A stretch of DNA of 64,000 bases. Source: a phage. Location of the stretch: NCBI GenBank assembly GCA_012690745.1, contig GCA_012690745.1_4086.2; one strand, given 5' to 3'. The notes beneath the pieces are model-generated. The model saw only the letters and a program-made list of their open reading frames with translations, was not told the origin of the DNA and ran no database searches. The translations under genes were made by a program, and so were the position numbers. Shown in pieces: positions 27,634 to 40,784 of this stretch (positions are counted from its first letter, which is position 1; each line of letters begins with the position of its first letter).

Positions 27634-27653
27634 AATTATTATCACAGTACTAT

Positions 27654-28409: not shown

Positions 28410-28460
28410 TCAAAACATCGTTAGCGGTCGATTTAGGCCGCTTATATTGGGGATTATACC

Positions 28461-28733: not shown

Positions 28734-28738
28734 TTAAT

Positions 28739-28948
28739 ATGCTTACTGTACAGGATAAGATCGACATCTTAAAGGTTAATATGTATGTGATTGATGCCGT
28801 ACCTGGTAAAGTATTTGCATACGATGACACCACTGTAAGCAATTTCTACTATAGCCAGGACGTGGGGGATCTTTCTGTACAGTCGGTTATTGAAAATGTA
28901 GTTAATGCAGCGTATGAGCATTTACTTTCAAATAGTACTTGCAATTAG
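28739..28948 (+). CDS. hypothetical protein
   Basis: ORF track. Confidence 0.5.
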   Translation: MLTVQDKIDILKVNMYVIDAVPGKVFAYDDTTVSNFYYSQDVGDLSVQSVIENVVNAAYEHLLSNSTCN

Positions 28949-28966
28949 TTTTTAAACGCGTATAAT
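28939..28966 (+). promoter_or_regulatory. early-type sigma70 promoter
   Basis: TTGCAA-16-TATAAT. Confidence 0.5.
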
Positions 28967-29017
28967 GTTTTACATGAAGGGGAGAAATGATTCTCCCCAC
29001 TAATTAAGGAATATGAA

Positions 29018-29164
29018 ATGAAAGCATCAAAAAAGAGTAATACTAAGAAAGCATGTTCACCTTTCGCTGGGGTATTCCCTTTACGTTTCGTTGATGAAGT
29101 GGTTTCCTACCCGCCGGGCCTTACTCCTGAGATGGTAGAAAGTTTGCGTAAATCTAAAAAATAA
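29018..29164 (+). CDS. small basic protein (48 aa)
   Basis: manual ORF MKASKKSNTKK... Confidence 0.4.
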   Translation: MKASKKSNTKKACSPFAGVFPLRFVDEVVSYPPGLTPEMVESLRKSKK

Positions 29165-29167
29165 TAC

Positions 29168-29195
29168 TTGCAATTAGTTTTTAGTACTGTATAAT
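29168..29195 (+). promoter_or_regulatory. early-type sigma70 promoter
   Basis: TTGCAA-16-TATAAT. Confidence 0.5.
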
Positions 29196-29245
29196 TGTTT
29201 ACATAGAGGGGGAAATGGTTCTCCCCTGATACAAGGAGAATCAAA

Positions 29246-29398
29246 ATGAAACAATATAATGCTCGGTTTGATGTTACTATCGGTAACGGCAAAGGTCAAT
29301 TTTCTTTCAGTACTCGACGCAGTTATACAGAAAACTTCCTGCGTAATTGTGCACTGACCGCCGCTCAAATTAAACATTATTTTCAGGCTAAAAAATGA
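29246..29398 (+). CDS. small protein (50 aa)
   Basis: manual ORF MKQYNARFDV...; SD AAGGAGAA. Confidence 0.45.
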   Translation: MKQYNARFDVTIGNGKGQFSFSTRRSYTENFLRNCALTAAQIKHYFQAKK

Positions 29399-29484
29399 AA
29401 TCATTAGCTTATTACAGTTCGGCCCTGGTCGGTGCATTGATCGCGGCGTTGTTAGTAACCTATCTATTCTTTATGGTGATTTAA
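29395..29484 (+). CDS. small hydrophobic peptide (29 aa)
   Basis: manual ORF MKSLAYYSSALVGALIAALLVTYLFFMVI; ATGA overlap. Confidence 0.35.
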   Translation: MKSLAYYSSALVGALIAALLVTYLFFMVI

Positions 29485-29622
29485 ATGAATCCTAACGGTA
29501 TAATTTACAGTACTCCTAAAACGAAAGCAGATAAAGCGAAAGCACGTAAAGCGAAAGTAAAGGAGTACATCAAGCAAGGCATGACGCGAAAGGCGGCGAT
29601 TCTGAAAGCTAAAAATAAATGA
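29485..29622 (+). CDS. small lysine-rich protein (45 aa)
   Basis: manual ORF MNPNGIIYSTPKTKADKAKARKAK... Confidence 0.35.
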   Translation: MNPNGIIYSTPKTKADKAKARKAKVKEYIKQGMTRKAAILKAKNK

Positions 29623-29630
29623 AAAAGTGG

Positions 29631-29660
29631 TTGACTTCGGTCAGCCATTTTGCTATTATA
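29631..29660 (+). promoter_or_regulatory. repeated hairpin-promoter module, copy 1
   Basis: TGGTTGAC-TTCG-GTCAGCCA hairpin overlapping TTGACT-18-TATTAT. Confidence 0.45.
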
Positions 29661-29763
29661 TATTCATTGAGAGATAGCTCACTAGCCCACAGGGTGCAGG
29701 AGTGTATCTATTGTATAATGATTGAGTACAGAAAACTATTTTAAAGTATTTGATAAAAAGTAC

Positions 29764-29791
29764 TTGCATACTATCTCAATAGGCGTATAAT
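29764..29791 (+). promoter_or_regulatory. early-type sigma70 promoter
   Basis: TTGCAT-16-TATAAT. Confidence 0.5.
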
Positions 29792-29842
29792 GTTTTACAT
29801 CGCAAGGGGAAACGGTTTCCCCTGGTAATAAGGAAACGAATC

Positions 29843-30184
29843 ATGACTATTGCAATTGCTCAATCTAACTTTGAAAACGAAATCATCGCTCAGGCACTGC
29901 GTTTAAATGATGGTCGGGCCGAAATCAATTACGGTTTCAATAGTGGTGGATGTGAAAAATATCAGTACTTTGTAACGGCTGATGGCTGTGTCCTGGGTAT
30001 CAATACAGTTATTGTAAACATTCAGAAAATTAATTTCAATGATCCAGACGATAGCCAGTTTTACATCACGGGCGTAGACGTGAACTATGAGGATGACTCA
30101 CTAACTGATGATCACACTGGCGAGAAGTTAGAAAGTGCATACGGTGAAGATGATTATCAGTCCGGTCCAGAAGATTTCGAATAA
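29843..30184 (+). CDS. hypothetical acidic protein
   Basis: ORF track. Confidence 0.6.
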   Translation: MTIAIAQSNFENEIIAQALRLNDGRAEINYGFNSGGCEKYQYFVTADGCVLGINTVIVNIQKINFNDPDDSQFYITGVDVNYEDDSLTDDHTGEKLESAYGEDDYQSGPEDFE

Positions 30185-30198
30185 TATTAAAAAATAGT

Positions 30199-30226
30199 TT
30201 GACAATAGTTTTTAGTACTGTATAAT
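30199..30226 (+). promoter_or_regulatory. early-type sigma70 promoter
   Basis: TTGACA-16-TATAAT. Confidence 0.55.
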
Positions 30227-30279
30227 AGTTTACATCAAGGGGAGAATAGTTCTCCCCACTAACAGAGAGAGAAAACAAA

Positions 30280-30492
30280 ATGGCTAATATCCGCACTGTA
30301 CTGAAAAATGCAAAACAAGTTTTATTTTCTGATCATGAAAATTTCAACAAGGATATCACTGGCGTTCGGAATATCAAAGATGTAAAAAATGTTATGGGTA
30401 TCTATTGCAATATGAAACGTGTTGGCACGTTCGGCGATAAAGTACTATACCAGGCAGGGGATTACAATTTTACACTGACTATCATTAACTAA
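30280..30492 (+). CDS. hypothetical protein
   Basis: ORF track. Confidence 0.6.
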   Translation: MANIRTVLKNAKQVLFSDHENFNKDITGVRNIKDVKNVMGIYCNMKRVGTFGDKVLYQAGDYNFTLTIIN

Positions 30493-30511
30493 AAATATTA
30501 TCACAGTACTA

Positions 30512-30540
30512 TTGACAACGTTTGATAGTACTGGCATAAT
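30512..30540 (+). promoter_or_regulatory. sigma70-type promoter
   Basis: TTGACA-17-CATAAT. Confidence 0.5.
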
Positions 30541-30583
30541 AACTTTTATCAAGACAACGCATATTAATTTAAGGAATACTAAA

Positions 30584-30763
30584 ATGGCTATTATCGCAAA
30601 AACTGAAATCATCGGCCTGGATTCTATCATCATGACGTTTGAAGATCAAAAAGGGATGTATGTAGTTTCCTATGGTGATTATGTTCGGGAGTATGAAACA
30701 GTAGACGAAGCCTTTGAAAGTTACATTCGCCAGGTTAATAAAGCATACGACGATTACCGCTAA
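30584..30763 (+). CDS. hypothetical protein (59 aa)
   Basis: trimmed to MAIIAKTEI; SD AAGGAA. Confidence 0.5.
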   Translation: MAIIAKTEIIGLDSIIMTFEDQKGMYVVSYGDYVREYETVDEAFESYIRQVNKAYDDYR

Positions 30764-30790
30764 AATATATTACCAGTACTATTAAATCTA

Positions 30791-30818
30791 TTGACAATGT
30801 TTGATAGTACTGTATAAT
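30791..30818 (+). promoter_or_regulatory. early-type sigma70 promoter
   Basis: TTGACA-16-TATAAT. Confidence 0.55.
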
Positions 30819-30862
30819 AACTTTTATCAACAGTAGTTAACTTAACCTAAGAGAGAAAAATC

Positions 30863-31006
30863 ATGACAGCATTAGATTCATTCATCGACGCAGTACTGGC
30901 AAAAACTGGCGAGGATCTGACCGCAGAACAATACGCGATGATCGAGCAATGCCAGCAAAACGGTAAATCGGTGAAAGATACTGTTAAGATTATCCGCAAG
31001 ATGTAA
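30863..31006 (+). CDS. small protein (47 aa)
   Basis: manual ORF MTALDSFIDAVLAK...; SD AGAGAGAA. Confidence 0.4.
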   Translation: MTALDSFIDAVLAKTGEDLTAEQYAMIEQCQQNGKSVKDTVKIIRKM

Positions 31007-31012
31007 GATTAT

Positions 31013-31040
31013 AGCCCACTGGTTAACGCTGGTGGGCTTT
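31013..31040 (+). terminator. terminator-like hairpin containing a Chi octamer
   Basis: AGCCCACTGG-N6-CTGGTGGGCT then TTT. Confidence 0.4.
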
Positions 31041-31111
31041 AATCATTTACCCTATACAATGCCAGTACTAAACCGTTTAACTCGTTAGAATGCGTTACAG
31101 GACGTTTAACA

Positions 31112-31309
31112 ATGATTAGCATGAAATCAGTACAAAAACAAATAGAAACATTATCAAAAATTAAACGTAAACAGTACTCCTTAGAATATACAATCAATGG
31201 TAACTATCATCTAATGAAAGAAAATAATTTTATAGTCATTGATGAATCATTGCAGATCATTAGTATAGTACTGAAAGCATTAATCAATGACAGAAAAAAG
31301 TTAAAATAA
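31112..31309 (+). CDS. hypothetical protein
   Basis: ORF track. Confidence 0.5.
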   Translation: MISMKSVQKQIETLSKIKRKQYSLEYTINGNYHLMKENNFIVIDESLQIISIVLKALINDRKKLK

Positions 31310-31314
31310 TCTAT

Positions 31315-31343
31315 TGACAAATTATGCCAGTACTGGCATAATA
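31315..31343 (+). promoter_or_regulatory. sigma70-type promoter
   Basis: TTGACA-17-CATAAT. Confidence 0.5.
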
Positions 31344-31638
31344 CTTACATCAAGACGAGAACGTCACTAACCCATAGGGTGCACAAATGTAACTATATAA
31401 TATCGATCAATAAATGATCAAAAAAGTACTGGATCAATTTAGCATAAGGCGTATAATTCTGATCAAATCTTGATCAAAGGCAATAAACGTAGTTGAAATT
31501 ATATAGAAAGTACAAAGGCGTTACCATTCGTGGTAATGCTGGGGAATATGTAGTATCATACGGTTTGAATAAAATCAGTACTAGTAGTATTATTGTAGCA
31601 TTACAGTACTATAGTATTTTTATAATGAGGTTAAAATA

Positions 31639-31896
31639 ATGGCTGTTGGATTCGCGAAGGACGGGGCCGAGCAAGACGAGATTAACGCAGTGATTCAGGC
31701 CGCTGTAAACCACGCTAGAACGCAAATTAACGCACAAATAGAATCACTGATACATTGCCTCGACTGCGGCGATAAAATCCCTGAGAATCGCCGCCTGGCC
31801 GTTAAGGGGTGTAAGTACTGCATCACTTGCCAGGCTGATCATGATAGCATATTCAAACGCAATCCCCGTAATTGTTGGCATAGATCTATGAGATAA
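31639..31896 (+). CDS. TraR/DksA-family C4 zinc-finger protein (putative)
   Basis: C-x2-C-x17-C-x2-C (HCLDCGDKIPENRRLAVKGCKYCITC); SD TGAGG. Confidence 0.55.
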   Translation: MAVGFAKDGAEQDEINAVIQAAVNHARTQINAQIESLIHCLDCGDKIPENRRLAVKGCKYCITCQADHDSIFKRNPRNCWHRSMR

Positions 31897-31902
31897 AAAG
31901 TA

Positions 31903-31930
31903 TTGACAGTGCTGTTAGTTAGTGTATAAT
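31903..31930 (+). promoter_or_regulatory. early-type sigma70 promoter
   Basis: TTGACA-16-TATAAT. Confidence 0.55.
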
Positions 31931-31959
31931 ATTTTATATCTTAACTGAGGATTGAAATC

Positions 31960-32316
31960 ATGGGTATACAACATATCACGCGTACTACAGACAATGGTGA
32001 GATCACTGGCTATCAAGTACAAGGCAAAGTAGCACAATTGCAGTACTGGTTTGTTAAACGTGGCATTGTTGCACCGGATCTTGATTATGATCGTGTAGCG
32101 TTTATTGATTCTCTTTATGTTGATCCCGATAATCGCGGTAACGGTGAAGGTACTGAATTAATGAATGCCTTTATTGATGCCGCCGATGATTCAGATTGTA
32201 TCATCTTAGAATGCGATACGGGAGAAGATAACGAGTTTAATCTTAAAGAATGGTATGAAAGTTTTGGTTTTGAAGTACTGATTAACTGTGAATATCCTAT
32301 AATGATTTTATCCTAG
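31960..32316 (+). CDS. possible GNAT-like acetyltransferase-fold protein
   Basis: IDSLYVDPDNRGNGEGTELM resembles GNAT motif A (R-x-x-G-x-G); weak. Confidence 0.5.
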   Translation: MGIQHITRTTDNGEITGYQVQGKVAQLQYWFVKRGIVAPDLDYDRVAFIDSLYVDPDNRGNGEGTELMNAFIDAADDSDCIILECDTGEDNEFNLKEWYESFGFEVLINCEYPIMILS

Positions 32317-32319
32317 TAC

Positions 32320-32347
32320 TTGCATTTAGTTTTAAGTACTGTATAAT
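32320..32347 (+). promoter_or_regulatory. early-type sigma70 promoter
   Basis: TTGCAT-16-TATAAT. Confidence 0.5.
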
Positions 32348-32395
32348 AGTTTACATGAAGGGGAGAATAGTTCTCCCCACTACAAGGAAAGACAA

Positions 32396-32584
32396 ATGCA
32401 AAACTTATCAAGTATTTTAGTACAAGATGATTTTGGTAATCCTGGAAGTGCTATCATCGTTCGGGGCAATAAGGCAACGTTTGTTATTGCTGGTGGACCT
32501 GTACAGCGTAGCATTAAAAACAATGCAGTTACAATCAATAATGTTCGCTATCGCTTAGATAAAGAATTGATTCATAAACTGTAA
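32396..32584 (+). CDS. hypothetical protein
   Basis: ORF track. Confidence 0.55.
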   Translation: MQNLSSILVQDDFGNPGSAIIVRGNKATFVIAGGPVQRSIKNNAVTINNVRYRLDKELIHKL

Positions 32585-32611
32585 TATTAATTTAATAGAG
32601 GATAAAAATAA

Positions 32612-32935
32612 ATGTATATTCATACTACTATCACAAAAGAAGTTCGTTGTCAATTCGAAAGTATCCCTGGTGTATGTTTCATTACAGGCACTTTCTCACC
32701 TGGTGACCGTGATAATCCAGTACTGTTACAGTTACGCCATCCATTATGGGATAAAGCATTTGATCTGCCGTTGAATGAATTCGCAACCACTGCTGATAAG
32801 TACATTAAAAATATTCGCGAGAATGATTGCCTATTCATTAATGCTTTTAGTGATGCCGCGTTAAGTGAGATCCATGCTGTATTGGTTGCAATCATGGAAT
32901 CAATGGAGAAAACTAAATTCAAACAAGGTGAATAA
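32612..32935 (+). CDS. hypothetical protein
   Basis: ORF track; SD AGAGGA. Confidence 0.6.
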   Translation: MYIHTTITKEVRCQFESIPGVCFITGTFSPGDRDNPVLLQLRHPLWDKAFDLPLNEFATTADKYIKNIRENDCLFINAFSDAALSEIHAVLVAIMESMEKTKFKQGE

Positions 32936-32941
32936 AAACTA

Positions 32942-32969
32942 TTGACAATGTAATCTAGTACTGTATAAT
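32942..32969 (+). promoter_or_regulatory. early-type sigma70 promoter
   Basis: TTGACA-16-TATAAT. Confidence 0.55.
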
Positions 32970-33018
32970 AGTTTACATGAAGGGGAGAAATGATTCTCCC
33001 CACTAAGAGGAAAGAAAC

Positions 33019-33231
33019 ATGCAAGGTCAACTAATCGTTCGTAAATGGTCTGATACTAACGAAAAACCGTGGGATGTTCAATATATCGGACCGGACGGTG
33101 TTTCACGTTATCAACCTGGCGTAACGCATAGTACTGAGCAATATGCCGCCGCTCACCGTGAACGCCTGTTAGAATCTATGAAACAGGGATTCTGTGAAAA
33201 ATTCATTCAAGATCATTGGCTGAAAGATTAA
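33019..33231 (+). CDS. hypothetical protein
   Basis: ORF track. Confidence 0.6.
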   Translation: MQGQLIVRKWSDTNEKPWDVQYIGPDGVSRYQPGVTHSTEQYAAAHRERLLESMKQGFCEKFIQDHWLKD

Positions 33232-33248
33232 TAGAAGGAGTACAGCTT

Positions 33249-33341
33249 ATGCAAATGAATCCGATGATTGTTGTGTTAGCTGTACTTATGATCATTCATG
33301 CCATCGTAGAAGTACTAACACAATCAGGAGTAATACAATGA
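33249..33341 (+). CDS. small hydrophobic peptide (30 aa)
   Basis: manual ORF MQMNPMIVVLAVLMIIHAIVEVL...; strong SD AAGGAG. Confidence 0.4.
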   Translation: MQMNPMIVVLAVLMIIHAIVEVLTQSGVIQ

Positions 33342-33508
33342 TCCAAGTAGAATTATCAGTACTGAAAGATCTGTTTTATCGGTTAGGCACTACTGGCGAA
33401 TACCCTAAAGGGGATACTGCTAAACTATACATTGCATTGGATGTATGGCAACGTAATGAACTGGCTAACGCCTGGCGTAAAGGTAAATCAGAGGGGATTG
33501 CAGCATGA
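33338..33508 (+). CDS. small protein (56 aa)
   Basis: manual ORF MIQVELSVLKDLFYRLG; ATGA overlap. Confidence 0.4.
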   Translation: MIQVELSVLKDLFYRLGTTGEYPKGDTAKLYIALDVWQRNELANAWRKGKSEGIAA

Positions 33509-33654
33509 AAGAATTCTTATTCGAAGTAGTGTTCCAGGGCGTAGGAAGTAACCAACTGATTCGATCAAGTGGTTACAATGTTAACCAGGCATGGAATAAC
33601 ATTAAACAAATGTACCCGAACGCTATCACATATCGCAACCCAAAACAAGTTTAA
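33505..33654 (+). CDS. small protein (49 aa)
   Basis: manual ORF MKEFLFEVVFQGVGSNQ; ATGA overlap. Confidence 0.4.
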   Translation: MKEFLFEVVFQGVGSNQLIRSSGYNVNQAWNNIKQMYPNAITYRNPKQV

Positions 33655-33672
33655 AAAGATTTAAAAAAGGGA

Positions 33673-33701
33673 TTGACTCCGGTCAGTCCCTTTGCTATTA
33701 T
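33673..33701 (+). promoter_or_regulatory. repeated hairpin-promoter module, copy 2
   Basis: GGGATTGAC-TCCG-GTCAGTCCC hairpin overlapping TTGACT-17-TATTAT. Confidence 0.45.
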
Positions 33702-33801
33702 ATATGCATAGAAACAATCTAACCCACAGGGTGCATAAATGTATCTATTATATGCTGGTGGCTAGTACTATCAAGTACTGAAAACTATTTTTAAAAAGTA
33801 C

Positions 33802-33829
33802 TTGCATTGTACTTAGAATCAAGTATAAT
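33802..33829 (+). promoter_or_regulatory. early-type sigma70 promoter
   Basis: TTGCAT-16-TATAAT. Confidence 0.5.
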
Positions 33830-33917
33830 GTTTTACATCAGGACGGGGAACGAAATAAGTAACCCCGTTAAGTAGTCCAGGAGTAAGACATACGAAAACC
33901 TCCCCTGATAAAATAGT

Positions 33918-33945
33918 TTGACAATAGAAATTAAACGAGTATAAT
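33918..33945 (+). promoter_or_regulatory. early-type sigma70 promoter
   Basis: TTGACA-16-TATAAT. Confidence 0.55.
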
Positions 33946-33975
33946 ACTTACATCAACCACAAAGAGGAATACAAA

Positions 33976-34176
33976 ATGAAACATTTTACTTTCGGTGTAG
34001 TAGGCTTTACAGTATCCAGCGGCGTTTATAAATCAGAACGCGGTGCTAAAAATGCAGCAAGTCGGGCGTATGGTTCACAGCGTGACTTACAGGTCGGTTA
34101 TATTAGTAACATTAATAACATGTTTATTCCTGTTTCACAGCGTAAAGCGGGTAACATGAAATGGGAAACAATTTGA
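33976..34176 (+). CDS. hypothetical protein
   Basis: ORF track; SD AGAGGAA. Confidence 0.6.
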   Translation: MKHFTFGVVGFTVSSGVYKSERGAKNAASRAYGSQRDLQVGYISNINNMFIPVSQRKAGNMKWETI

Positions 34177-34185
34177 TAAAATAGT

Positions 34186-34213
34186 TTGACAATAGTTTTT
34201 AGTACTGTATAAT
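34186..34213 (+). promoter_or_regulatory. early-type sigma70 promoter
   Basis: TTGACA-16-TATAAT. Confidence 0.55.
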
Positions 34214-34265
34214 ATTTTACATCAAGTGGGGAATAGTTCCCCACCTAACAAAGAGAGAAATTAAA

Positions 34266-34541
34266 ATGCGGATTCTACTGACAGCTAACGAAATCGAGCA
34301 AGTACTGACTACTAACCTGGAAGACTGGAAACGTGATGCAGATATCCAGGCGGTGCAATGGCTCAATGATAAGTTAACGCCGGATGATTTAAGTAAGATT
34401 GTAGATCCACAATTCTATGAAGATATTCACGACACGGCTTTAAGCGTCGAGGATGTACTTGATAAGCACTACATTGATACTGATTTACATGTTTACGGTC
34501 GTAAAAACTTTATCACTATTCACGACATTTACAATACTTAA
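34266..34541 (+). CDS. hypothetical protein
   Basis: ORF track. Confidence 0.6.
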   Translation: MRILLTANEIEQVLTTNLEDWKRDADIQAVQWLNDKLTPDDLSKIVDPQFYEDIHDTALSVEDVLDKHYIDTDLHVYGRKNFITIHDIYNT

Positions 34542-34544
34542 GTA

Positions 34545-34572
34545 TTGACAAAGTATCTTAGTACTGTATAAT
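34545..34572 (+). promoter_or_regulatory. early-type sigma70 promoter
   Basis: TTGACA-16-TATAAT. Confidence 0.55.
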
Positions 34573-34628
34573 AGTTTACATCAAGTGAGGGGAATGGTTC
34601 CCTTCCTAACAAAAAGAGAGAAATTAAA

Positions 34629-34952
34629 ATGACTATGATCCTTGCCCAGAAAGTAGAAATGAAAATTGTAACTTCCTTTGACATTAAAGTTAATCGGTGG
34701 ACTGATAGCCACGGCAATACTTACCACTCATGCTACGTGTCTGCATTGATTGGTGACCGCTGGGAAGACCTGGGACATGAAACCTTTACTTACGGTTACG
34801 GTACACAAGGCGAATACACGGGCTTGGAGATCATTAAAGAAACTGTAATAGGTTTCAACCCGAAAGAGAAAGTACTACACAGAATTGAGGATGAGATCAA
34901 CAAAGAAATTACAGTTCGTTACTACGATGTAAAACGTAAAAAAGACATGTAA
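34629..34952 (+). CDS. hypothetical protein; paralogue of 27715..28059
   Basis: ORF track. Confidence 0.6.
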   Translation: MTMILAQKVEMKIVTSFDIKVNRWTDSHGNTYHSCYVSALIGDRWEDLGHETFTYGYGTQGEYTGLEIIKETVIGFNPKEKVLHRIEDEINKEITVRYYDVKRKKDM

Positions 34953-34974
34953 TAGAATCCATTTAAAGTACTAT

Positions 34975-35003
34975 TTGACATTGCCCAGATAGTACTTTAT
35001 AAT
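34975..35003 (+). promoter_or_regulatory. sigma70-type promoter
   Basis: TTGACA-17-TATAAT. Confidence 0.55.
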
Positions 35004-35051
35004 AGACTCTAACTTGTAGTACTAATTAACTTAACTAATAGGATGTACACC

Positions 35052-35447
35052 ATGATTACTAAATTCTTCGCTACCCGTGAACAAGCTCGCATCGTTGCTC
35101 GTGAAGAAGGTGAAACATTTAAAGACATGGGCAAAGATGCACCGAAAGGACAACGCTGGGCGGTACAGTTCAAAGAGATCTCTGATATTGTGAATTCACC
35201 TGAGCCTGTACTTACTGAAGCAGAACTAAAGCAAGCTCAAGAACTGGCTGAAGTACTGAACGCTCAAGATGACTTTTTGAAAGGTTCTGATATTGAAGTT
35301 ACAGTTAACGCAAATGCATGGACTCACGCGGATCACCTGGCAAACCTTAAGCGTCCAAGTGAACTGATTCGTAACCAGAAAGAGATCCGTCATGACCGTA
35401 AAGGAAACCGTGTAACAGTATACAGTAAACGCCGCCAGGTTATCTAA
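35052..35447 (+). CDS. hypothetical protein; paralogue of 22571..22837
   Basis: trimmed to MITKFFATREQARIVAR. Confidence 0.6.
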   Translation: MITKFFATREQARIVAREEGETFKDMGKDAPKGQRWAVQFKEISDIVNSPEPVLTEAELKQAQELAEVLNAQDDFLKGSDIEVTVNANAWTHADHLANLKRPSELIRNQKEIRHDRKGNRVTVYSKRRQVI

Positions 35448-35469
35448 TAACTTTGCAGTACTAACAACA

Positions 35470-35496
35470 CGGCGGGTTCAGTTCCCGCCTTTTTTT
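35470..35496 (+). terminator. intrinsic terminator
   Basis: GGCGGG-TTCAGTT-CCCGCC then TTTTTTT. Confidence 0.6.
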
Positions 35497-35511
35497 ATAG
35501 GATAAACTAAA

Positions 35512-35766
35512 ATGATGAAGGTACAACTATCTAAAGATAATATCTTGCGGGTACACTATAAAGCACCACAGAGAATCATCACAAAGGCCGTACAGCTTGC
35601 TAATGAGTTTATTAATGGTAGTCTATTACCCAGGAAGTTAAGCAACGGGAAACTACGTGTTATCGATGTAGACACTAACAATAGAATAGTAATTGAGAGT
35701 ACTGGAAAAATTAATCTATATGAACACCAACAATACAATAAAAAAATAAAACTAATATCACGTTGA
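35512..35766 (+). CDS. hypothetical protein
   Basis: ORF track. Confidence 0.55.
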   Translation: MMKVQLSKDNILRVHYKAPQRIITKAVQLANEFINGSLLPRKLSNGKLRVIDVDTNNRIVIESTGKINLYEHQQYNKKIKLISR

Positions 35767-35791
35767 CAGTACTCAATTGTTTTAGTATTAT
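35764..35791 (+). promoter_or_regulatory. sigma70-type promoter
   Basis: TTGACA-16-TATTAT. Confidence 0.5.
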
Positions 35792-35822
35792 GTATCTATA
35801 CCAACACAGAGAGAGAAACAAA

Positions 35823-36041
35823 ATGAAATTATCTAAAATCGAAAAGAAAACTATTGATGAAGCAGTGAAGCACGGTTATACCTTTCGTAATGATTCACAC
35901 TTCACCAGTTTTCAACAGGGAAACCGTACCATCAAAAAACTCATTGATAAAGGTTTACTCACTAAGGTTGATAACGGGAACGGTGTAGAATATCAACCGA
36001 CAGAAGACGCATTATCACTAAAGAAATATTCTATTATCTAA
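35823..36041 (+). CDS. hypothetical protein
   Basis: trimmed to MKLSKIEKK; SD AGAGAGA. Confidence 0.55.
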   Translation: MKLSKIEKKTIDEAVKHGYTFRNDSHFTSFQQGNRTIKKLIDKGLLTKVDNGNGVEYQPTEDALSLKKYSII

Positions 36042-36042
36042 T

Positions 36043-36070
36043 TGACAGTACTCAAATGTTTTAGTACTAT
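36043..36070 (+). promoter_or_regulatory. sigma70-type promoter
   Basis: TTGACA-16-TACTAT; near-duplicate of the 35764 promoter. Confidence 0.5.
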
Positions 36071-36098
36071 GTACGCATACCAACACGGGGAAAACAAA

Positions 36099-36341
36099 AT
36101 GATTACTTTAGAAAAACGTATCAAAGAGACTACAACGCTGGTGGAACTGTTAACCGTTCTTAAATGCCGGGTAACTCCATTCAGTACACCGGACTTTATC
36201 AACATGGTGGACGTTAACGGTCGATATCGTATTGCGGTCGAACAAGGTACGGCAAAAGTATTCAGTACTAAAAATACGCGTGAAGTATTCCACGCAGTTC
36301 AAGTAAAAAAAGTAGTTGCCATTGATAGTAAAGTACTGTAA
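36099..36341 (+). CDS. hypothetical protein
   Basis: trimmed to MITLEKRIKE. Confidence 0.55.
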   Translation: MITLEKRIKETTTLVELLTVLKCRVTPFSTPDFINMVDVNGRYRIAVEQGTAKVFSTKNTREVFHAVQVKKVVAIDSKVL

Positions 36342-36372
36342 TATAGTTTCATTAACTCAAGGAGTCAACACA

Positions 36373-36957
36373 ATGCGTAACTATACTAAATTCATCCGTT
36401 CACTTCATGCAATGGAAACCAACAAAGAGATCCTTTCAGCTTGTCGGTTAGCTGGACTGGAGATCGTCGGTGCGGGTTCTTCCCGTATTGTATTCGCTTT
36501 AAATGATCGGTTAGTGATTAAGGTCGCGAATTGTGATGCGGGTGTAGAACAAAATGAAACTGAATGTAAGGTATGGAATTTTTTAGATTATGACCGTCCG
36601 CACCTTAAACAGTTCTTTGCCAAGGTGCATATGCATTTAAGCGATCCTGATAATATGTTTATCGTTATGGATCGGTTGAGTACTGCAAGCAAAGGCAGTG
36701 TAAAGCACGTTAACGCGTGCAACGAATTAAAGTACAATATTAAACGTAATGCAATTGAACGCCAGCACCGCTTTGCTGATGCACTACAACACGTTGATGA
36801 TACACTGTCAACACTAACGATAAGAGATATCAGAAAACAGAATATCGGCCAGGATCGCAACGGCCTTATTAAAGTACTTGATTACGGTTTAACCCGCAAT
36901 ATCTGGAATCAGTACTATAAAAAGCGGGATGTAAAAGCCGTAACTATAACACGATAA
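36373..36957 (+). CDS. protein-kinase-like protein (putative Ser/Thr kinase fold)
   Basis: G-loop VGAGSSRIVF, Lys in VIKV, catalytic-loop-like IRDIRKQN, DYG in place of DFG, with kinase-like spacing; SD AAGGAG. Confidence 0.55.
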   Translation: MRNYTKFIRSLHAMETNKEILSACRLAGLEIVGAGSSRIVFALNDRLVIKVANCDAGVEQNETECKVWNFLDYDRPHLKQFFAKVHMHLSDPDNMFIVMDRLSTASKGSVKHVNACNELKYNIKRNAIERQHRFADALQHVDDTLSTLTIRDIRKQNIGQDRNGLIKVLDYGLTRNIWNQYYKKRDVKAVTITR

Positions 36958-36975
36958 AAAAGATTAAAAAAGGGA

Positions 36976-37004
36976 TTGACTTCGGTCAGTCCCTTTGCTA
37001 TTAT
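36976..37004 (+). promoter_or_regulatory. repeated hairpin-promoter module, copy 3
   Basis: GGGATTGAC-TTCG-GTCAGTCCC hairpin overlapping TTGACT-17-TATTAT. Confidence 0.45.
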
Positions 37005-37098
37005 ATATTCATTGAGAGATAGCTCACTGACCCACAGGGTGCATAAATGTATCTATTATATAAGTATTCAGTACTGAAAACTATTTGATAAAAAGTAC

Positions 37099-37126
37099 TT
37101 GCATTGTACTTAGAATCAAGTATAAT
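37099..37126 (+). promoter_or_regulatory. early-type sigma70 promoter
   Basis: TTGCAT-16-TATAAT. Confidence 0.5.
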
Positions 37127-37178
37127 GTTTTATATCGAGAGGGGGAAATGGTTCTCCCTGGTAATAAGGAATAAAATC

Positions 37179-37400
37179 ATGACTACAATGACTTGCATTT
37201 ACGCTTCCAATCTTCTGAATGATGCGGCCTTTAATGTTGATTCAGAATATCAATGTTATCGGGATGAAAATAAAAAAGTTTTTGTAGTTGATAATAATGG
37301 TTTCCATATTGAATTACAATCCGGTTTCACTGGTGTTGATGGTAAATCAGTGTGGGGCGTACAGGATGATAAAGGCACATATCATTTTAAACGTAATTAA
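37179..37400 (+). CDS. hypothetical protein
   Basis: trimmed to MTTMTCIY; SD AAGGAA. Confidence 0.55.
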   Translation: MTTMTCIYASNLLNDAAFNVDSEYQCYRDENKKVFVVDNNGFHIELQSGFTGVDGKSVWGVQDDKGTYHFKRN

Positions 37401-37403
37401 GTA

Positions 37404-37431
37404 TTGACAAAGTATATCAGTACTGTATAAT
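37404..37431 (+). promoter_or_regulatory. early-type sigma70 promoter
   Basis: TTGACA-16-TATAAT. Confidence 0.55.
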
Positions 37432-37486
37432 AGTTTACATCAAGGGGAGAATAGTTCTCCCCACACCAATAAAAGGAAACAAAATT

Positions 37487-37759
37487 ATGTCCAGCTACTC
37501 CGCTACTATGATCATTAAAGATATGAACGGTAATCCTACTTCTGCTGGTGGATCATTTGGAAATATTAACTTAGATGGGCGGTTATCCATGCAATCAGCC
37601 ATCGATACAGCGAAAGAAGTTTTTAAGAATGAATGTACTGTTAGTAAGCTGGATTATATGGGATTCGCTATCGAGAAAACTACTCGTTTTGTGAACTACA
37701 AAAATCCACTGATGATTGATACTAACCTGAAAGCTAACGAAGTGGGGTACTTATTATGA
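37487..37759 (+). CDS. hypothetical protein
   Basis: ORF track; SD AAAGGAA. Confidence 0.6.
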   Translation: MSSYSATMIIKDMNGNPTSAGGSFGNINLDGRLSMQSAIDTAKEVFKNECTVSKLDYMGFAIEKTTRFVNYKNPLMIDTNLKANEVGYLL

Positions 37760-37947
37760 CAGTAGAAGAAGTAAAAAAAGTACTGGCAGTACTACGATAT
37801 CATAATCATTGCAAGGTGAAGAATGATCCTGATTATCTCGATTCATCCCTGGAGGAAGACACCTTAAACGCGATAAGCCATATGCAAACATTAGCAAAGC
37901 GTATGACCGAAAAGAATAGGCCGGACTATATCGGAAATAAAATTTAA
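37756..37947 (+). CDS. hypothetical protein
   Basis: ORF track; ATGA overlap. Confidence 0.55.
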   Translation: MTVEEVKKVLAVLRYHNHCKVKNDPDYLDSSLEEDTLNAISHMQTLAKRMTEKNRPDYIGNKI

Positions 37948-37954
37948 AAAGTAC

Positions 37955-37982
37955 TTGCATTGTAGTTAGATTAACGTATAAT
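37955..37982 (+). promoter_or_regulatory. early-type sigma70 promoter
   Basis: TTGCAT-16-TATAAT. Confidence 0.5.
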
Positions 37983-38034
37983 GTTTTATATCGAGAGGGG
38001 GAAATGGTTTCCCCTCAAGTCCAGGAGATACACC

Positions 38035-38298
38035 ATGAACGCTATTGAAATCACTATCAATGCACACGTATACGACAACGTAGTACTGCAAACTACTATG
38101 ACCGCTAACGATACCAGTACTTTGCGGAATACTGTTATTAGTGCCGTATGTGCTGCAATCGGTGATGTATCCCTGGAAAATGCAGAACATATCAACAACG
38201 GTTTCACTATGTGCAAGCGTGATAACGCAAAACATATCATCGTAGAAGGTTACGGCGGTGTAGAATTTAATGTTTATATGAAAAAAGTACTTGCATAA
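38035..38298 (+). CDS. hypothetical protein
   Basis: trimmed to MNAIEITIN; SD CAGGAGA. Confidence 0.6.
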   Translation: MNAIEITINAHVYDNVVLQTTMTANDTSTLRNTVISAVCAAIGDVSLENAEHINNGFTMCKRDNAKHIIVEGYGGVEFNVYMKKVLA

Positions 38299-38318
38299 TA
38301 ACTAAAACAAAGTATAAT
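38291..38318 (+). promoter_or_regulatory. early-type sigma70 promoter
   Basis: TTGCAT-16-TATAAT. Confidence 0.5.
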
Positions 38319-38365
38319 GTTTTGCATAGGGGGAGATATCCTCCCCCACTAAAAGGAGTAATAAA

Positions 38366-38590
38366 ATGGCTAACTTTGATGAACTGATGCGGGAAGTAGC
38401 TAACCTGGCAGAAGAGAAGAAATCATTCGATTCTATCTATAACACCGCTCACCGTGATTCAGTACTGGCATGTACTCAGGATCAAAAAGATGAACTAATC
38501 GCCACCTATCATGAAGCATGGAAGTACTACCGACAATGGGAGAAAGAAGAAAGTGAGTCTACCATTGACGGCCTCAATAATCTAATCTAA
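38366..38590 (+). CDS. hypothetical protein
   Basis: ORF track; SD AAGGAG. Confidence 0.6.
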   Translation: MANFDELMREVANLAEEKKSFDSIYNTAHRDSVLACTQDQKDELIATYHEAWKYYRQWEKEESESTIDGLNNLI

Positions 38591-38608
38591 AAGTTTTATT
38601 TCAGTACT

Positions 38609-38638
38609 ATTGACATAGCTTGATAGTACTGATGTAAT
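38609..38638 (+). promoter_or_regulatory. sigma70-type promoter
   Basis: TTGACA-18-TGTAAT. Confidence 0.4.
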
Positions 38639-38666
38639 AACTTTACTAACTACAAGGGGAAACATA

Positions 38667-38924
38667 ATGGAACAGTTCACACAATATCGGGTAAATCCTC
38701 AAGCTATGGCCTACGTAGAAGACCATAAAACATTACCAGTACAGACACCAATCAAAGGCCGTATCTATCGTGCTATGCAGTGGAATAACGCCTATAATGG
38801 CTATAAAGCGGTAGCGGCTGCAATGTACTTAGGGGATGGTGAATGGTTTGATCCAAATAATCCTGGTGCACTAGATAGTACTGAACAAATGACATGGGCC
38901 GACTATATCGAAGATATCTCATAA
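38667..38924 (+). CDS. hypothetical protein
   Basis: ORF track. Confidence 0.6.
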   Translation: MEQFTQYRVNPQAMAYVEDHKTLPVQTPIKGRIYRAMQWNNAYNGYKAVAAAMYLGDGEWFDPNNPGALDSTEQMTWADYIEDIS

Positions 38925-38931
38925 AAACTAT

Positions 38932-38959
38932 TTGACAGTACTACAAGATAATGTATAAT
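38932..38959 (+). promoter_or_regulatory. early-type sigma70 promoter
   Basis: TTGACA-16-TATAAT. Confidence 0.55.
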
Positions 38960-39012
38960 GTTTTACATAGAGCGGGGGAATAGTTCTCCCGCACCTTTAG
39001 GAGTAAAACATT

Positions 39013-39213
39013 ATGTCAATCGCTAACGAATTGGTTGCAGTACTGAATGAAGCAAAAGCCAACCGCATCGATGTACAGATCAAAGAGCTTGGCAATGGCT
39101 TGATCGGCTGTACTTGTTCCGTGCAAACGGCTACCGATTATCGGGAAGTGGAATCACTCGAATCACTGGTACGGTATATTAAAATCCTGGTAGAAGATTG
39201 GAGAATCATCTAA
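39013..39213 (+). CDS. hypothetical protein
   Basis: ORF track; SD AGGAG. Confidence 0.6.
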   Translation: MSIANELVAVLNEAKANRIDVQIKELGNGLIGCTCSVQTATDYREVESLESLVRYIKILVEDWRII

Positions 39214-39234
39214 CAAAAAAGAATAAAAAAGGGA

Positions 39235-39263
39235 TTGACTCTGGTCAGTCCCTTTGCTATTAT
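39235..39263 (+). promoter_or_regulatory. repeated hairpin-promoter module, copy 4
   Basis: GGGATTGAC-TCTG-GTCAGTCCC hairpin overlapping TTGACT-17-TATTAT. Confidence 0.45.
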
Positions 39264-39386
39264 ATACGCATAGACAAAAACTAGCCCACAGGGTGCAGAG
39301 AAGTATCTGTAAGATAGTTAATAACGGTGAGTAACTATCTGCTGGTGGATGTAATTCCAGTACTCAAAACTATTTCAAAAAAAGTA

Positions 39387-39415
39387 TTGACAAAGTATAT
39401 CAGTACTGCAATAAT
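39387..39415 (+). promoter_or_regulatory. sigma70-type promoter
   Basis: TTGACA then CAATAAT about 16-17 bp downstream. Confidence 0.4.
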
Positions 39416-39468
39416 GTATCTCGTAGGGCGGCAATAGTGCGACGGCCCACAAAGTTAGGAGATTCAAA

Positions 39469-39795
39469 ATGAGTACTTCAATCGCTATCGTTAAAGCTTT
39501 CATCCGTACCAATTTCGACCGCATTACTGTTGATGGTAATGATCGGGAAGTAGAATACTCTTTCATCGTTGCACAAACCGCAAACGGTGCACGCTATATC
39601 TTAAACGATAGTGAAGCTAACCACTACTTCTATAATAAAGGATTACACTATATCCCTAGCGAAGTAGTCTACACTAAGATGAATAAATTAGTAGACAAGA
39701 TTAACGCGAAAGGTACTATAGATTTACAGTACTGGACCGAAACAGATCCAGAATACGGATCACATCGTTACCTGAATCCAGGTATTAAAATGTAA
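39469..39795 (+). CDS. hypothetical protein
   Basis: ORF track; SD AGGAGA. Confidence 0.6.
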   Translation: MSTSIAIVKAFIRTNFDRITVDGNDREVEYSFIVAQTANGARYILNDSEANHYFYNKGLHYIPSEVVYTKMNKLVDKINAKGTIDLQYWTETDPEYGSHRYLNPGIKM

Positions 39796-39802
39796 AAAGT
39801 AC

Positions 39803-39830
39803 TTGCATAGTACTTAGAATCAAGTATAAT
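39803..39830 (+). promoter_or_regulatory. early-type sigma70 promoter
   Basis: TTGCAT-16-TATAAT. Confidence 0.5.
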
Positions 39831-39885
39831 GTTTTACATAGAGAGGGGGGAAATGGTTCTCCCTCCTAAATTAAGGAGTTTTATC

Positions 39886-40287
39886 ATGACCTTCTCAATC
39901 ACTTCCTTCGCTGATGTTTTAGTACTGGCTCGGACTTTTGGTAAAGATGCACTGGAGTACGCTGTAAGTAATGGCACTCTCCAACCGGAACAATGCCGCA
40001 TCATTGGAAACTGCAAACGTTGGGCGGTATCCAATACTATTGCACTAGAAAACTTCAACGATGGTAACAATGAGTATTCAGTTGATGCAGTATTCGAAGC
40101 CGTTGATCTTGGCGGTATCTATAACACTAACCTAAATGATGTGCGTATCGTTCGCACGGGGTTCGGTGCTTATGATGTATCTATCCGTGAAGCTATGAAC
40201 ACCGGATACATTAGTAAGGACTTACTTGCTCACATCATGCAGCTATGGACGGAACGTAACGAAGCACGCACTATCTTAGGACTATAA
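39886..40287 (+). CDS. hypothetical protein
   Basis: trimmed to MTFSITSF; SD AAGGAG. Confidence 0.6.
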   Translation: MTFSITSFADVLVLARTFGKDALEYAVSNGTLQPEQCRIIGNCKRWAVSNTIALENFNDGNNEYSVDAVFEAVDLGGIYNTNLNDVRIVRTGFGAYDVSIREAMNTGYISKDLLAHIMQLWTERNEARTILGL

Positions 40288-40355
40288 GCATTACACATCA
40301 CCAAACATCATAGGCCGCTCTCTAGCGGCCTTAACTATATCAGGAGGGCATACAT

Positions 40356-40756: not shown

Positions 40757-40784
40757 TTGACTTTTTATACAATTCATATATTAT
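40757..40784 (+). promoter_or_regulatory. putative sigma70 promoter for array 3
   Basis: TTGACT-16-TATTAT; SD GGGAG before ATG 40815. Confidence 0.45.

Follow-up and report, generated by a model that had tools for sequence, protein, structure and literature searches.

Several described phage systems place a short regulatory element at the junction of transcription units. In lambdoid antitermination, lambda nut consists of boxA/boxB with N, qut lies at PR' with Q, and HK022 has its put RNA. Both nut and put act as small hairpins in RNA, with variable stems and conserved loops or boxes, and PR'-qut-tR' is laid out as a promoter followed by a short terminated RNA. In bacteria, coupled or overlapping promoters and terminators are reportedly known as a general idea, with the start and end signals of adjacent units physically coupled. 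The composite terminator/promoter design is already known from the promoter-early stem-loop (PeSL) cassettes of T4-type phages (Arbiol et al. 2010, PMC2839356; Comeau et al. 2014, PMC4122927). In phi1/RB49, the PeSL stem-loop terminated transcription and the promoter was active in reporters (PMC2839356, PMC4122927). Additionally, the related jumbo phage PA5oct uses the host RNA polymerase and makes non-coding transcripts from its direct terminal repeat, which account for 2-5% of phage reads (Lood et al. 2020, PMC7318152).

We analyzed a stretch of 64,000 nt (the window) from an Asteriusvirus-like (Rak2-like) jumbo coliphage. The first-pass annotation had described four copies of a hairpin-plus-promoter module there, and sequence inspection and alignment of the copies found all four in place on the + strand. 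The hairpin of copy 1 (AAAGTGGTTGAC-TTCG-GTCAGCCATTTT, 29624-29651) begins 2 nt past the stop codon of ORF 29485-29622. Those of copies 2 (33666-33693) and 3 (36969-36996) each begin 11 nt past a stop codon, of ORF 33505-33654 and of the ORF ending at 36957, respectively, and that of copy 4 (39228-39255) begins 14 nt past the stop codon of ORF 39013-39213. Thus, as at intrinsic terminators, a stable G/C-containing hairpin follows the coding region in all four cases, at 2-14 nt. The 9-bp stem with a UUCG-type loop that had been proposed was correct for the G/C-containing core, but three extra A-U pairs extend the stem to 12 bp, and the loops of copies 1-4 read TTCG, TCCG, TTCG and TCTG. Folding energies range from -15.9 kcal/mol (copy 1) to -19.5 kcal/mol (copy 2), with copies 3 and 4 at -18.5 and -17.6 kcal/mol, and the z-scores against shuffles are -4.6 to -5.9. 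The U-tract at the stem end is short, being UUU or UUUU followed by GCUAUUAU; it is interrupted, yet it passes the scan rule of 5 T in 8 that we used for terminator-like sites. By this rule, four of the five strong terminator-like sites on the + strand between 29 and 40 kb are the four hairpins. An A-run lies upstream of the hairpin and would read as a U-run on the opposite strand; because of this run, the hairpin should also halt transcripts arriving from the other side.

Comparison with other phages points to selection on the hairpin as RNA. Two compensatory changes of stem pairs (G-C to U-A and A-U to G-C) set copy 1 apart from the other three. Among 26 orthologous and paralogous copies from six phage loci and the window, four pairs of the lower stem are altered on both sides, a count taken from alignments that were partly selected or fitted for pairing. 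In the same set, TTGAC is invariant, and its partners vary only in wobble-compatible ways (U-G/U-A and G-C/G-U). The lower-stem covariation together with the wobble-only partners argues for an RNA hairpin whose 5' arm is fixed by promoter function. Moreover, the hairpin is present on 35 of the 50 units that have a co-directional gene upstream vs none of the 22 opposite-strand units. In UE-S1 and G17, an independent terminator annotation lies under or adjoins the match, and in GAP32, ARNold calls terminators at comparable post-gene sites in the same zone.

The overlapping TTGACT-17-TATTAT promoter that had been reported was found in all four copies, with a TG before the -10. It matches the consensus at 10 of 12 positions, with a 17-nt spacing, inside the 16-18 bp range of sigma70 promoters, and an A-run upstream in every copy. 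In copy 1 (29631-29659), the -35 at 29631-29636 falls in the 5' arm and loop, and the TG-extended -10 occupies 29654-29659. The promoters of copies 2-4 span 33673-33701, 36976-37004 and 39235-39263. From the usual 7-nt distance to the -10, transcription is predicted to start near 29666, 33708, 37011 and 39270. In fHe-Yen9-03, the promoter carries annotated -35/-10 signals. Across the copies, the spacing between the -10 and a conserved RNA element is constant, which is what transcription starting there would predict.

From sequence, covariation and context, we infer the following arrangement of terminator, embedded promoter and leader RNA. The UNCG-type hairpin after the stop codon, with an A-run on one side and a T-run on the other, would serve as the intrinsic terminator of the upstream early operon. 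The top of its 5' arm and the first loop base would provide the -35, TTGAC(T), and the 3' arm and T-run would form the 17-nt spacer ahead of the -10. Host sigma70 polymerase would then start about 7 nt past the -10; the new transcript would not contain the hairpin and would therefore not be terminated by it. That the same DNA may both end one transcript and start another, as had been suggested, is supported by the covariation and the wobble-kept TTGAC arm, by the confinement of the hairpin to units with a co-directional upstream gene, by its position after the stop codon and by the fixed distance of the leader. Such cassettes would belong to the early part of the genome, within the terminal repeat, of a Rak2-like jumbo phage reliant on the host RNA polymerase.

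In PeSLs as in these cassettes, a strong early sigma70-type promoter is combined with a stem-loop that may lie between or overlap the -35 and -10, directly after the upstream stop codon and before the next gene (PMC2839356), in an A/T-rich context and in many copies among small orphan ORFs. Both are also linked to indels between close relatives. Homology with relatives is interrupted where copies 1 and 2 start (29610 and 33653) as well as at ordinary promoters, and indels relative to UE-S1 are bounded by promoter cassettes. Like PeSLs, the cassettes may therefore delimit variable gene blocks. However, the hosts of this design are Rak2-like jumbo phages and not T4-type phages, and the stem always tops with TTGAC and usually carries a UNCG loop. 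Furthermore, the last parts of a PeSL are the Shine-Dalgarno sequence and start codon of the gene that follows, whereas here the embedded promoter leads into a non-coding leader and the gene has a second promoter of its own. Shine-Dalgarno and ATG come after this second promoter, 100-130 bp beyond the embedded one. In copy 1, an ordinary early promoter, TTGCAT-16-TATAAT (29764-29791), is followed by a 5'UTR hairpin (29806-29823) and an ATG at 29843. The same promoter sequence recurs in copy 2 (33802-33829) and in copy 3 (37099-37126), the latter followed by a 5'UTR hairpin and an ATG at 37179; copy 4 has TTGACA-17-AATAAT (39387-39415) and an ATG at 39469. What is added to the first-pass annotation is that the design is that of PeSLs, that the embedded promoter drives a non-coding element and not a gene, and that this element belongs to a larger family.

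The second half of the module had been described as CCCACAGGGTGCA followed by TGTATCT. Exact copies of CCCACAGGGTGCA do occur at 29686, 33723, 37031 and 39285, but the sequence is not specific to the four copies. A search of the window that allowed up to 2 mismatches gave 10 occurrences, vs 0.4 expected, so the module is not limited to them. A survey of about 214 kb from eight phages gave 72 covariance-model matches, 10 of them in the window. We conclude that this box RNA is a putative small structured non-coding element, present at about 10 copies per genome in all Rak2-like jumbo phages and apparently undescribed. It is confined to an early zone of about 16-18 kb, inside the terminal repeat where that repeat is annotated, and its motif does not vary among phages whose hosts belong to eight genera. 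In all 64 exact-box matches, the box lies 21-28 nt past a sigma70-type -10, and all 72 elements lie in the same range. No match to the element was found in Rfam, the E. coli genomes or the literature searched; across the whole window, Rfam 15 gave 0 matches at the gathering score and elsewhere only weak terminator-like matches with E up to 5.

The box RNA is predicted to begin with a 5'-terminal hairpin, P1, with a variable stem and a purine-rich loop, followed by a 4-nt linker. Then would come a small hairpin, P2, of the form (A/G)CCC-N3-4-GGGU, with an invariant GGGUGC and a YRYYUAU tail, and the transcript would pass through the second, ordinary early promoter into the next genes. In P1, all 4 pairs are altered on both sides and 24 distinct stems occur, again in alignments partly chosen or fitted for pairing. 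Leaders picked by the box alone fold at -3.0 kcal/mol, compared with -1.0 kcal/mol for shuffles, and 27 of 64 fall in the 5% tail. P2 shows two independent compensatory variants, CCU...AGG. The leader of copy 1 (29666-29711, 61.2 bits) has P1 at 29668-29681, the box CCCACAGGGTGC at 29686-29697 and a tail reaching 29711, and that of copy 3 (37011-37056, 63.7 bits) has P1 at 37013-37026 and the box at 37031-37042. Copies 2 (33708-33748, box 33723-33734, 44.8 bits) and 4 (39270-39311, box 39285-39296, 37.1 bits) carry short forms, that of copy 2 lacking P1 (AUAGAAACAAUCUAA).

Six further box units in the window have an ordinary promoter and no hairpin. Two are on the + strand. A fifth co-directional unit (31314-31399), with promoter TTGACA-17-CATAAT at 31314-31342 and box RNA at 31350-31399, lies in a 318-bp segment missing from UE-S1. 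The other (23186-23268), with TTGACT-17-CATAAT at 23186-23214 and RNA at 23219-23268, stands face to face with a unit on the - strand (23280-23361). Three more lie on the - strand. One stands alone at 25313-25441, with its promoter at 25413-25441, box RNA at 25356-25406 and a terminator hairpin at 25313-25331. The weakest match (21343-21393, 24.8 bits) has a decayed inverted box about 50 nt downstream, and the last unit (21127-21177) is directed toward an 8-bp periodic array at 20781-20969.

For the function of the box RNA, we favor, as a guess, a leader that acts in cis and alters the polymerase transcribing it, with a trans-acting small RNA and a DNA site as live rivals. The leader would act on the very polymerase that has just made it, as a promoter-proximal pause and loading signal, after which the polymerase would resist the many downstream terminators, much as with lambda nut/qut or HK022 put. 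In that case, transcripts from ordinary early promoters would be operon-limited and those from box promoters would read through, and the promoter-box-terminator units on the opposite strand would work as switches gated by a factor. No other step is as uncertain as this one, and we offer it tentatively, since we give it clearly less than an even chance. In its favor, co-directional units lack a terminator of their own and stand at operon heads exactly at terminators, and strong terminators follow within 30-60 nt of opposite-strand units, a layout that resembles lambda PR'-qut-tR'. As in lambdoid antitermination, a short conserved element lies just past a strong phage promoter and upstream of terminators, here in 72 elements, and some opposite-strand units share the PR'-qut-tR' arrangement. 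In contrast to those systems, the box has no recognizable similarity to boxA, boxB or put and matches no Rfam model, and it occurs in about 10 copies per genome rather than one to three. The box RNA has an invariant GG, a U nine nt later in 69 of 72 and then a G in 45 of 72. The pause consensus is G-10 Y-1 G+1, and the spacing appears to fit it, a resemblance rather than a test. Several observations count against a cis role: a number of opposite-strand units lack an evident gene for read-through to enter, antitermination leaves the face-to-face pairs unexplained, and the 8-bp periodic array close to the end of the genome has the tail motif CCGTCTAT as its unit, which hints at a reader at the DNA level. 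A scan of 19 window ORFs, of which 17 belong to the early region, revealed no candidate antiterminator (N-, Q- or NusG-like), although small arginine-rich proteins would escape such a scan; the only recognizable products among these ORFs were a DksA/TraR-type zinc finger, a GNAT and a kinase-like protein.

Alternatively, the box RNA may be a multi-copy immediate-early small RNA acting in trans, or a protein decoy. Each unit would give a short stable RNA, protected by its 5' hairpin, whose CCC/GGG hairpin and GGGUGC bind a conserved host or phage factor, and the hairpin-promoter cassettes would merely reflect the packing of small RNA genes between operons. The opposite-strand units are arranged in the classic way of such genes, with a strong promoter followed after about 95 nt by a strong, U-run-bearing terminator, many copies fall within the terminal-repeat part of the genome, and the motif is unchanged across eight host genera. 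Two abundant non-coding RNAs also arise from the terminal repeat of PA5oct (PMC7318152), although these are single-copy, measure 236 and 451 nt, lack the box motif and do not match the box model. However, the 50 co-directional units reach the next promoter without a terminator, which means that a discrete RNA could arise only by processing, and face-to-face pairs would yield mutually complementary RNAs. We regard this reading as possible but rather doubtful. We are more skeptical still of a double-stranded DNA site, formed by box and tail, that would serve as an operator or roadblock through which a phage regulator silences or pauses these promoters, or as a promoter for the sigma factor encoded by the phage; this seems unlikely. 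The same protein would bind the 8-bp array, which lies about 200 bp from the first box units and is conserved in the window phage, CBB, GAP32 and BF. One array unit is the tail variant CCGTCTAT (the - strand units being CCGTCTAG, CCGTCTAT and CCATCTAG), the invariant 12-mer is partly palindromic (CCC N3 GGG), and the layout TAACCC-N16-18-(C)GTCTAT loosely recalls ECF-type promoters. Against it, P1 covaries as an RNA hairpin, the P2 changes are compensatory and not half-site-weakening, and the box loop varies from 3 to 4 nt. Furthermore, the best-conserved GGGTGC would sit in the spacer of the putative alternative promoter, and an independent DNA site would not need the tightly kept distance to the upstream sigma70 -10.

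Finally, the repeats might be recombination cassettes only, that is, PeSL-type shuffling joints, with the box as a functionless hitch-hiker. Homology breakpoints between relatives do coincide with cassettes, the 31.3-kb unit is an indel relative to UE-S1, and PeSL recombination, in which exchange between copies yields mini-circles, is documented in T4-type phages (PMC2839356). However, a passenger would not keep CCC and GGGTGC invariant across genera in which the flanks, P1 stems and promoters have diverged, nor would it keep pairing through compensatory changes, and we consider this explanation very improbable. We favor as fairly probable, for the arrangement as a whole, a terminator-promoter cassette followed by a box leader, with the action of that leader in cis as the least certain part. 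That the box represents a new class of phage leader RNA, which reprograms the host RNA polymerase or captures a conserved host factor in the first minutes of infection, we put forward as speculation; if true, these 350-kb phages would possess a nut/put-like temporal switch that nobody has described.

The module had also been said to carry Chi about 50 bp downstream of copies 2 and 4. The octamer GCTGGTGG is indeed present at 33754 and 39341, but the distance was loose: these sites lie 20 and 45 nt past the box and 88 and 113 bp past the hairpin start. Chi is not tied to the module: it is enriched throughout the window on the + strand, with 9 occurrences vs 0.22 expected.

The four hairpin-plus-promoter repeats at 29624, 33666, 36969 and 39228 on the plus strand (copies 1-4) are a real, conserved regulatory cassette. 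Inspection and alignment confirmed that all four exist where the first-pass annotation had placed them, each beginning 2-14 nt past a stop codon with an A-run. The 9-bp stem described there is present but forms the core of a longer hairpin, which reaches 12 bp through three further A-U pairs and carries the loops TTCG, TCCG, TTCG and TCTG in copies 1-4, respectively (-15.9 to -19.5 kcal/mol; z about -5). The TTGACT-17-TATTAT promoter does overlie the hairpin in the four copies, with an extended -10 TG, and the exact 13-mer CCCACAGGGTGCA lies 21-26 nt past the -10 in each. A consensus scan marked the same four places as both terminator-like and promoter-like. Between 29 and 40 kb, the only other strong plus-strand terminator-like site is 35471-35489; therefore, the four hairpins would divide this region into operons. 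Annotations of related phages place a terminator under or adjoining the cassette match (UE-S1 and G17), ARNold terminator calls at comparable post-gene sites (GAP32) and -35/-10 signals at the same spot (fHe-Yen9-03). The earlier proposal that this DNA both ends the upstream transcript and starts a new one is well supported by comparison, and the hairpin is probably a terminator doubling as a promoter. Such an overlap would illustrate the dense insulation of the early region. The Chi octamers reported 3' of copies 2 and 4 are also there; because Chi is enriched across the window's plus strand, it is handled apart from the cassette question.

By blastn, the module was found at 304 places in 68 records of phages infecting Escherichia, Klebsiella, Salmonella, Erwinia, Yersinia, Serratia, Pectobacterium and Cronobacter. 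We aligned 26 distinct hairpin copies from the window and from UE-S1, fHe-Yen9-03, CBB, RaK2, GAP32 and BF, with PHA46 giving one copy; 14-28 kb was examined per related genome. Four pairs of the lower stem vary on both sides (G-C, A-U, U-A and C-G). TTGAC, which tops the 5' arm, never changes, and the bases opposite it vary solely as U-G/U-A and G-C/G-U. This pattern is what would be expected if promoter function kept one arm constant and the second arm drifted under helix constraint. Because hairpins entered the alignment only with 9 or more contiguous pairs, part of the percentage paired follows from the selection; the variety of pair types does not.

In T4-type phages, the promoter-early stem-loop (PeSL) is a composite terminator/promoter cassette in which the stem-loop may overlap or separate the -35 and -10 elements; both termination and promoter activity have been demonstrated for PeSLs, which are located at indel boundaries (PMC2839356, PMC4122927). 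In sequence and position, our cassettes match these features with one exception. As judged from its sequence, the terminator/promoter half belongs to this already-known design. However, whereas a PeSL closes with a ribosome-binding site and a start codon, the promoter embedded here feeds a conserved non-coding leader. As far as we could find, this box leader RNA, named for its CCC-N3-4-GGGTGC element (the box), is undescribed. No known RNA family in Rfam matches it, and the full-text literature searched for the motif returned unrelated primer hits only. An exact-pattern scan of IMG/VR gave 23 stretches, of which only those from RaK2, 121Q and BF match the model; none of these lies outside the present phage group, and no diversity was added. 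The box has no blastn match across 5,426 E. coli genomes, and a host origin or host mimicry was rejected.

When up to two mismatches are allowed, the window contains 10 copies of the box compared with 0.4 expected. The regular expression CCC N3-4 GGGTGC gave 66 hits, representing 64 distinct elements, in the window and seven loci; all hits are in the sense orientation, 21-28 nt 3' of a sigma70-type -10. A covariance model trained on 24 elements recovered 72 in 214 kb, including 10 within the window (23219, 29664, 31350, 33706, 37009 and 39274 on the plus strand; 21127, 21343, 23280 and 25356 on the minus strand). Numbered from its predicted start, the A of (C)AU, the box RNA opens with a 5'-terminal hairpin, P1, whose stem of 3-5 bp closes a loop rich in purines (GNGAAA, AGAUAA or AGAACAA). 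A CUAA or CUAG linker leads to the second hairpin, P2, of the form (A/G)CCC-N3-4-GGGU, and to the invariant GGGUGC, followed by four mostly purine bases, a near-invariant U (69 of 72) and the tail N-Y-R-Y-Y-UAU.

P1 is the best-supported feature of the box RNA. Its four pairs all vary on both sides, giving 24 different 4-bp stems, and leaders chosen by the box alone fold at -3.0 kcal/mol compared with -1.0 kcal/mol for shuffles (the 5% tail holds 27 of the 64). About 15% of the copies, including copies 2 and 4, have no P1 and carry an unpaired GAAAACAA-like stretch instead. P2 is near-invariant, with two independent compensatory CCU...AGG variants (one in fHe-Yen9-03, one in CBB) and a loop that differs among copies in sequence and length. 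An alternative helix, P3, would overlap P2 by pairing GGUG with the YRYY tail; it is compatible with the data (97% paired) but has one-sided changes only. The energy model favours P2 in 43 of the 72 copies and P3 in 19. Pair counts throughout rest on partly selected or model-fitted alignments. That the product of the cassette promoter would start with a selected RNA structure is as well supported as the terminator/promoter reading. Short and invariant, the box leader offers a concrete, mutable handle on early regulation. Small ORFs are annotated across box elements in several records, and recognition of the box would correct them.

Several other identities for the box were rejected. For a mini-ORF (GGGUG as Shine-Dalgarno, then AUG UAU CUA stop), NUG is present in only about 60% of the copies, the others having AUC or NUA, and copies are separated by 5-nt indels. 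A T4-type late promoter (TATAAATA) within GCATAAATG varies between copies, a T7/T3-like promoter (TAACCC...GGG) has the wrong register, and an ECF-type promoter would put the best-conserved bases in the spacer. Against a CRISPR-repeat mimic, the motif is invariant across hosts with differing systems and has no known likeness to I-E or I-F repeats. Pseudoknot or long-range pairing of the P1 loop (AGAUA) with the tail (UAUCU) is confined to one subclass.

Units of promoter plus box are restricted to one zone, at 21.1-39.3 kb in the window and within the initial 14-19 kb of the compared loci. In CBB, vB_Ec-M-J and Muenster, for which a direct terminal repeat is annotated, the repeat and this zone are the same. 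Eight hairpin-type copies, versus four elsewhere, occur in records that exceed the others in length by about 22 kb. The hairpin accompanies 35 of 50 co-directional units, oriented as the surrounding genes, versus none of 22 opposite-strand units. Co-directional units lack their own terminator; 60-130 bp on comes another promoter, of the ordinary early type, followed by a 5'UTR hairpin, a ribosome-binding site and the gene. One kind of opposite-strand unit meets a strong, apparently bidirectional terminator after 30-60 nt, and its RNA is predicted to be about 95 nt long. The other kind faces a plus-strand unit, with 60-90 bp between the boxes. Such face-to-face pairs occur at 23219/23280 of the window (spanning 23186-23361) and in CBB, GAP32, BF, fHe-Yen9-03 and PHA46; the relative-phage loci hold them at 986-1098 and 3796-3908 (L026), 3767-3879 (L028), 975-1104 and 3692-3804 (L029), 283-414 and 2547-2660 (L002), and 4144-4275 and 10043-10161 (L030). 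They amount to two strong promoters aimed at each other at a conserved position near the early zone's left end, and each transcript would carry one box in sense and the second as its complement, forming a stem of about 15 bp.

The exact points at which homology to relatives starts are copies 1 and 2 or ordinary promoter cassettes. All four cassettes are in synteny with UE-S1, the intervening blocks differing by whole small genes, and the box unit at 31.3 kb is a 318-bp indel relative to that phage. The stretch 33830-33975, which follows the second promoter of copy 2, contains a 5'UTR hairpin and AGGAG, then ATA where the start codon is expected; a third promoter (33918-33945) precedes the gene at 33976, and 33961-34259 is missing from UE-S1. 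This stretch resembles the decayed start of a gene where cassettes join.

We remained tentative about the role of the box. It is possible that the box works in cis, as a leader altering the polymerase that transcribes it through pausing or antitermination, which would account for its strict promoter-proximal position, its siting exactly at operon-ending terminators, the terminator-less co-directional units and the promoter-box-terminator arrangement of opposite-strand units. We also counted towards it the GG-N8-UG spacing of the box, which we take to resemble the elemental pause consensus and the ops element. However, a cis-acting leader leaves the face-to-face pairs unexplained, and no candidate factor was found among the 19 window ORFs covered by our domain scan. 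Stand-alone units would suit a trans-acting, multi-copy small RNA or decoy, for which the abundant terminal-repeat ncRNAs of PA5oct are a precedent. Their sequence is unrelated to the box, and co-directional units would fit only with processing; we rate a small RNA or decoy only slightly below the cis-acting leader.

A DNA-level site seems improbable. It is suggested by the tail variant CCGTCTAT, which recurs among the units of a conserved array with an 8-bp period, and it clashes with the RNA-type covariation. This array of about 10-24 units (CTAGACGG, CTAAACGG, CTGGATGG etc.) lies at 20781-20969 in the window and at 715-805, 3508-3586 and 610-766 in L026, L028 and L029, respectively. In the window phage, CBB, GAP32 and BF, about 200 bp separates it from the first box units; in CBB, the terminal repeat's left end is about 0.75 kb away. 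On the minus strand, its units read CCGTCTAG and CCGTCTAT and resemble the box tail. The array may serve in packaging, end recognition or protein binding.

The 11 kb around the cassettes matches Asteriusvirus jumbo coliphages, with JP4 at 90.8% identity over the entire stretch and further matches in phAPEC6, slurp01, G17 and UE-S1. The window has three parts: an RCC1-like minus-strand array, two plus-strand runs of small ORFs and, between them, an extremely promoter-rich early region. The RCC1-like array (311-15044; 13 paralogues of about 380 aa; Pfam WD40_RLD and RCC1_2) agrees in layout with GAP32 and PHA46. The plus-strand runs each comprise about 25 tandem paralogous ORFs, of about 60 aa (MHKEYY...LLLIYRY) at a spacing of about 190 bp in 15148-19739 and of about 75 aa with a common ...LGTNYQE... 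motif in 40815-48548; two members checked of the latter had no Pfam match. No tRNA, tmRNA or Rfam family at gathering score was found within the window. To our knowledge, Rak2-like jumbo phages have no multisubunit RNA polymerase of their own and would therefore have to direct the host's enzyme across more than 500 genes. Early genes here include a DksA/TraR-type C4 zinc finger (31639-31896; a fold known to bind the secondary channel of RNA polymerase) just 3' of the 31.3-kb box unit, as well as a GNAT acetyltransferase (31960-32316) and a weak protein-kinase-like match (36373-36957).

More than 20 ordinary early cassettes lie in 27000-42000 (e.g., 30180-30255, 32301-32376, 34167-34242 and 37385-37460), each with TTGACA or TTGCAT, 16-17 nt, TATAAT, ACAUCAAG, a GGGGAGAAnnGUUCUCCCC 5'UTR hairpin, ACUAAC and a ribosome-binding site; the CAUCAAG-hairpin-ACUAAC frame is common to these and the box leader. 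AGTACT is the window's commonest hexamer (262 versus about 50 expected; densest in 16000-40000), and CAGTACTG occurs 52 times versus 2.8 expected. The hexamer is fixed at two early-promoter places, as AAAAGTACTTGCA at the -35 and as AGTACTGTATAAT or AGTACTGGCATAAT just 5' of the -10, and may be a regulator site or simply AT-rich stem material of promoter hairpins. Classical terminators at 26174-26224 and 26899-26949 (GCCCACU-loop-AGUGGGC and a U6 run) start with CACTAGCCCAC, the 11-mer preceding the box loop; their weak Rfam Trp_leader scores (E = 0.015 and 0.27) probably reflect terminator shape. Chi (GCTGGTGG) occurs nine times on the plus strand versus 0.22 expected, about 40-fold (1857, 20602, 27020, 31028, 32489, 33754, 36137, 37544 and 39341), and on the minus strand at 13613, 20590 and 26958. 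This orientation would presumably halt RecBCD arriving from the right, and the sites 3' of copies 2 and 4 are also found in UE-S1.
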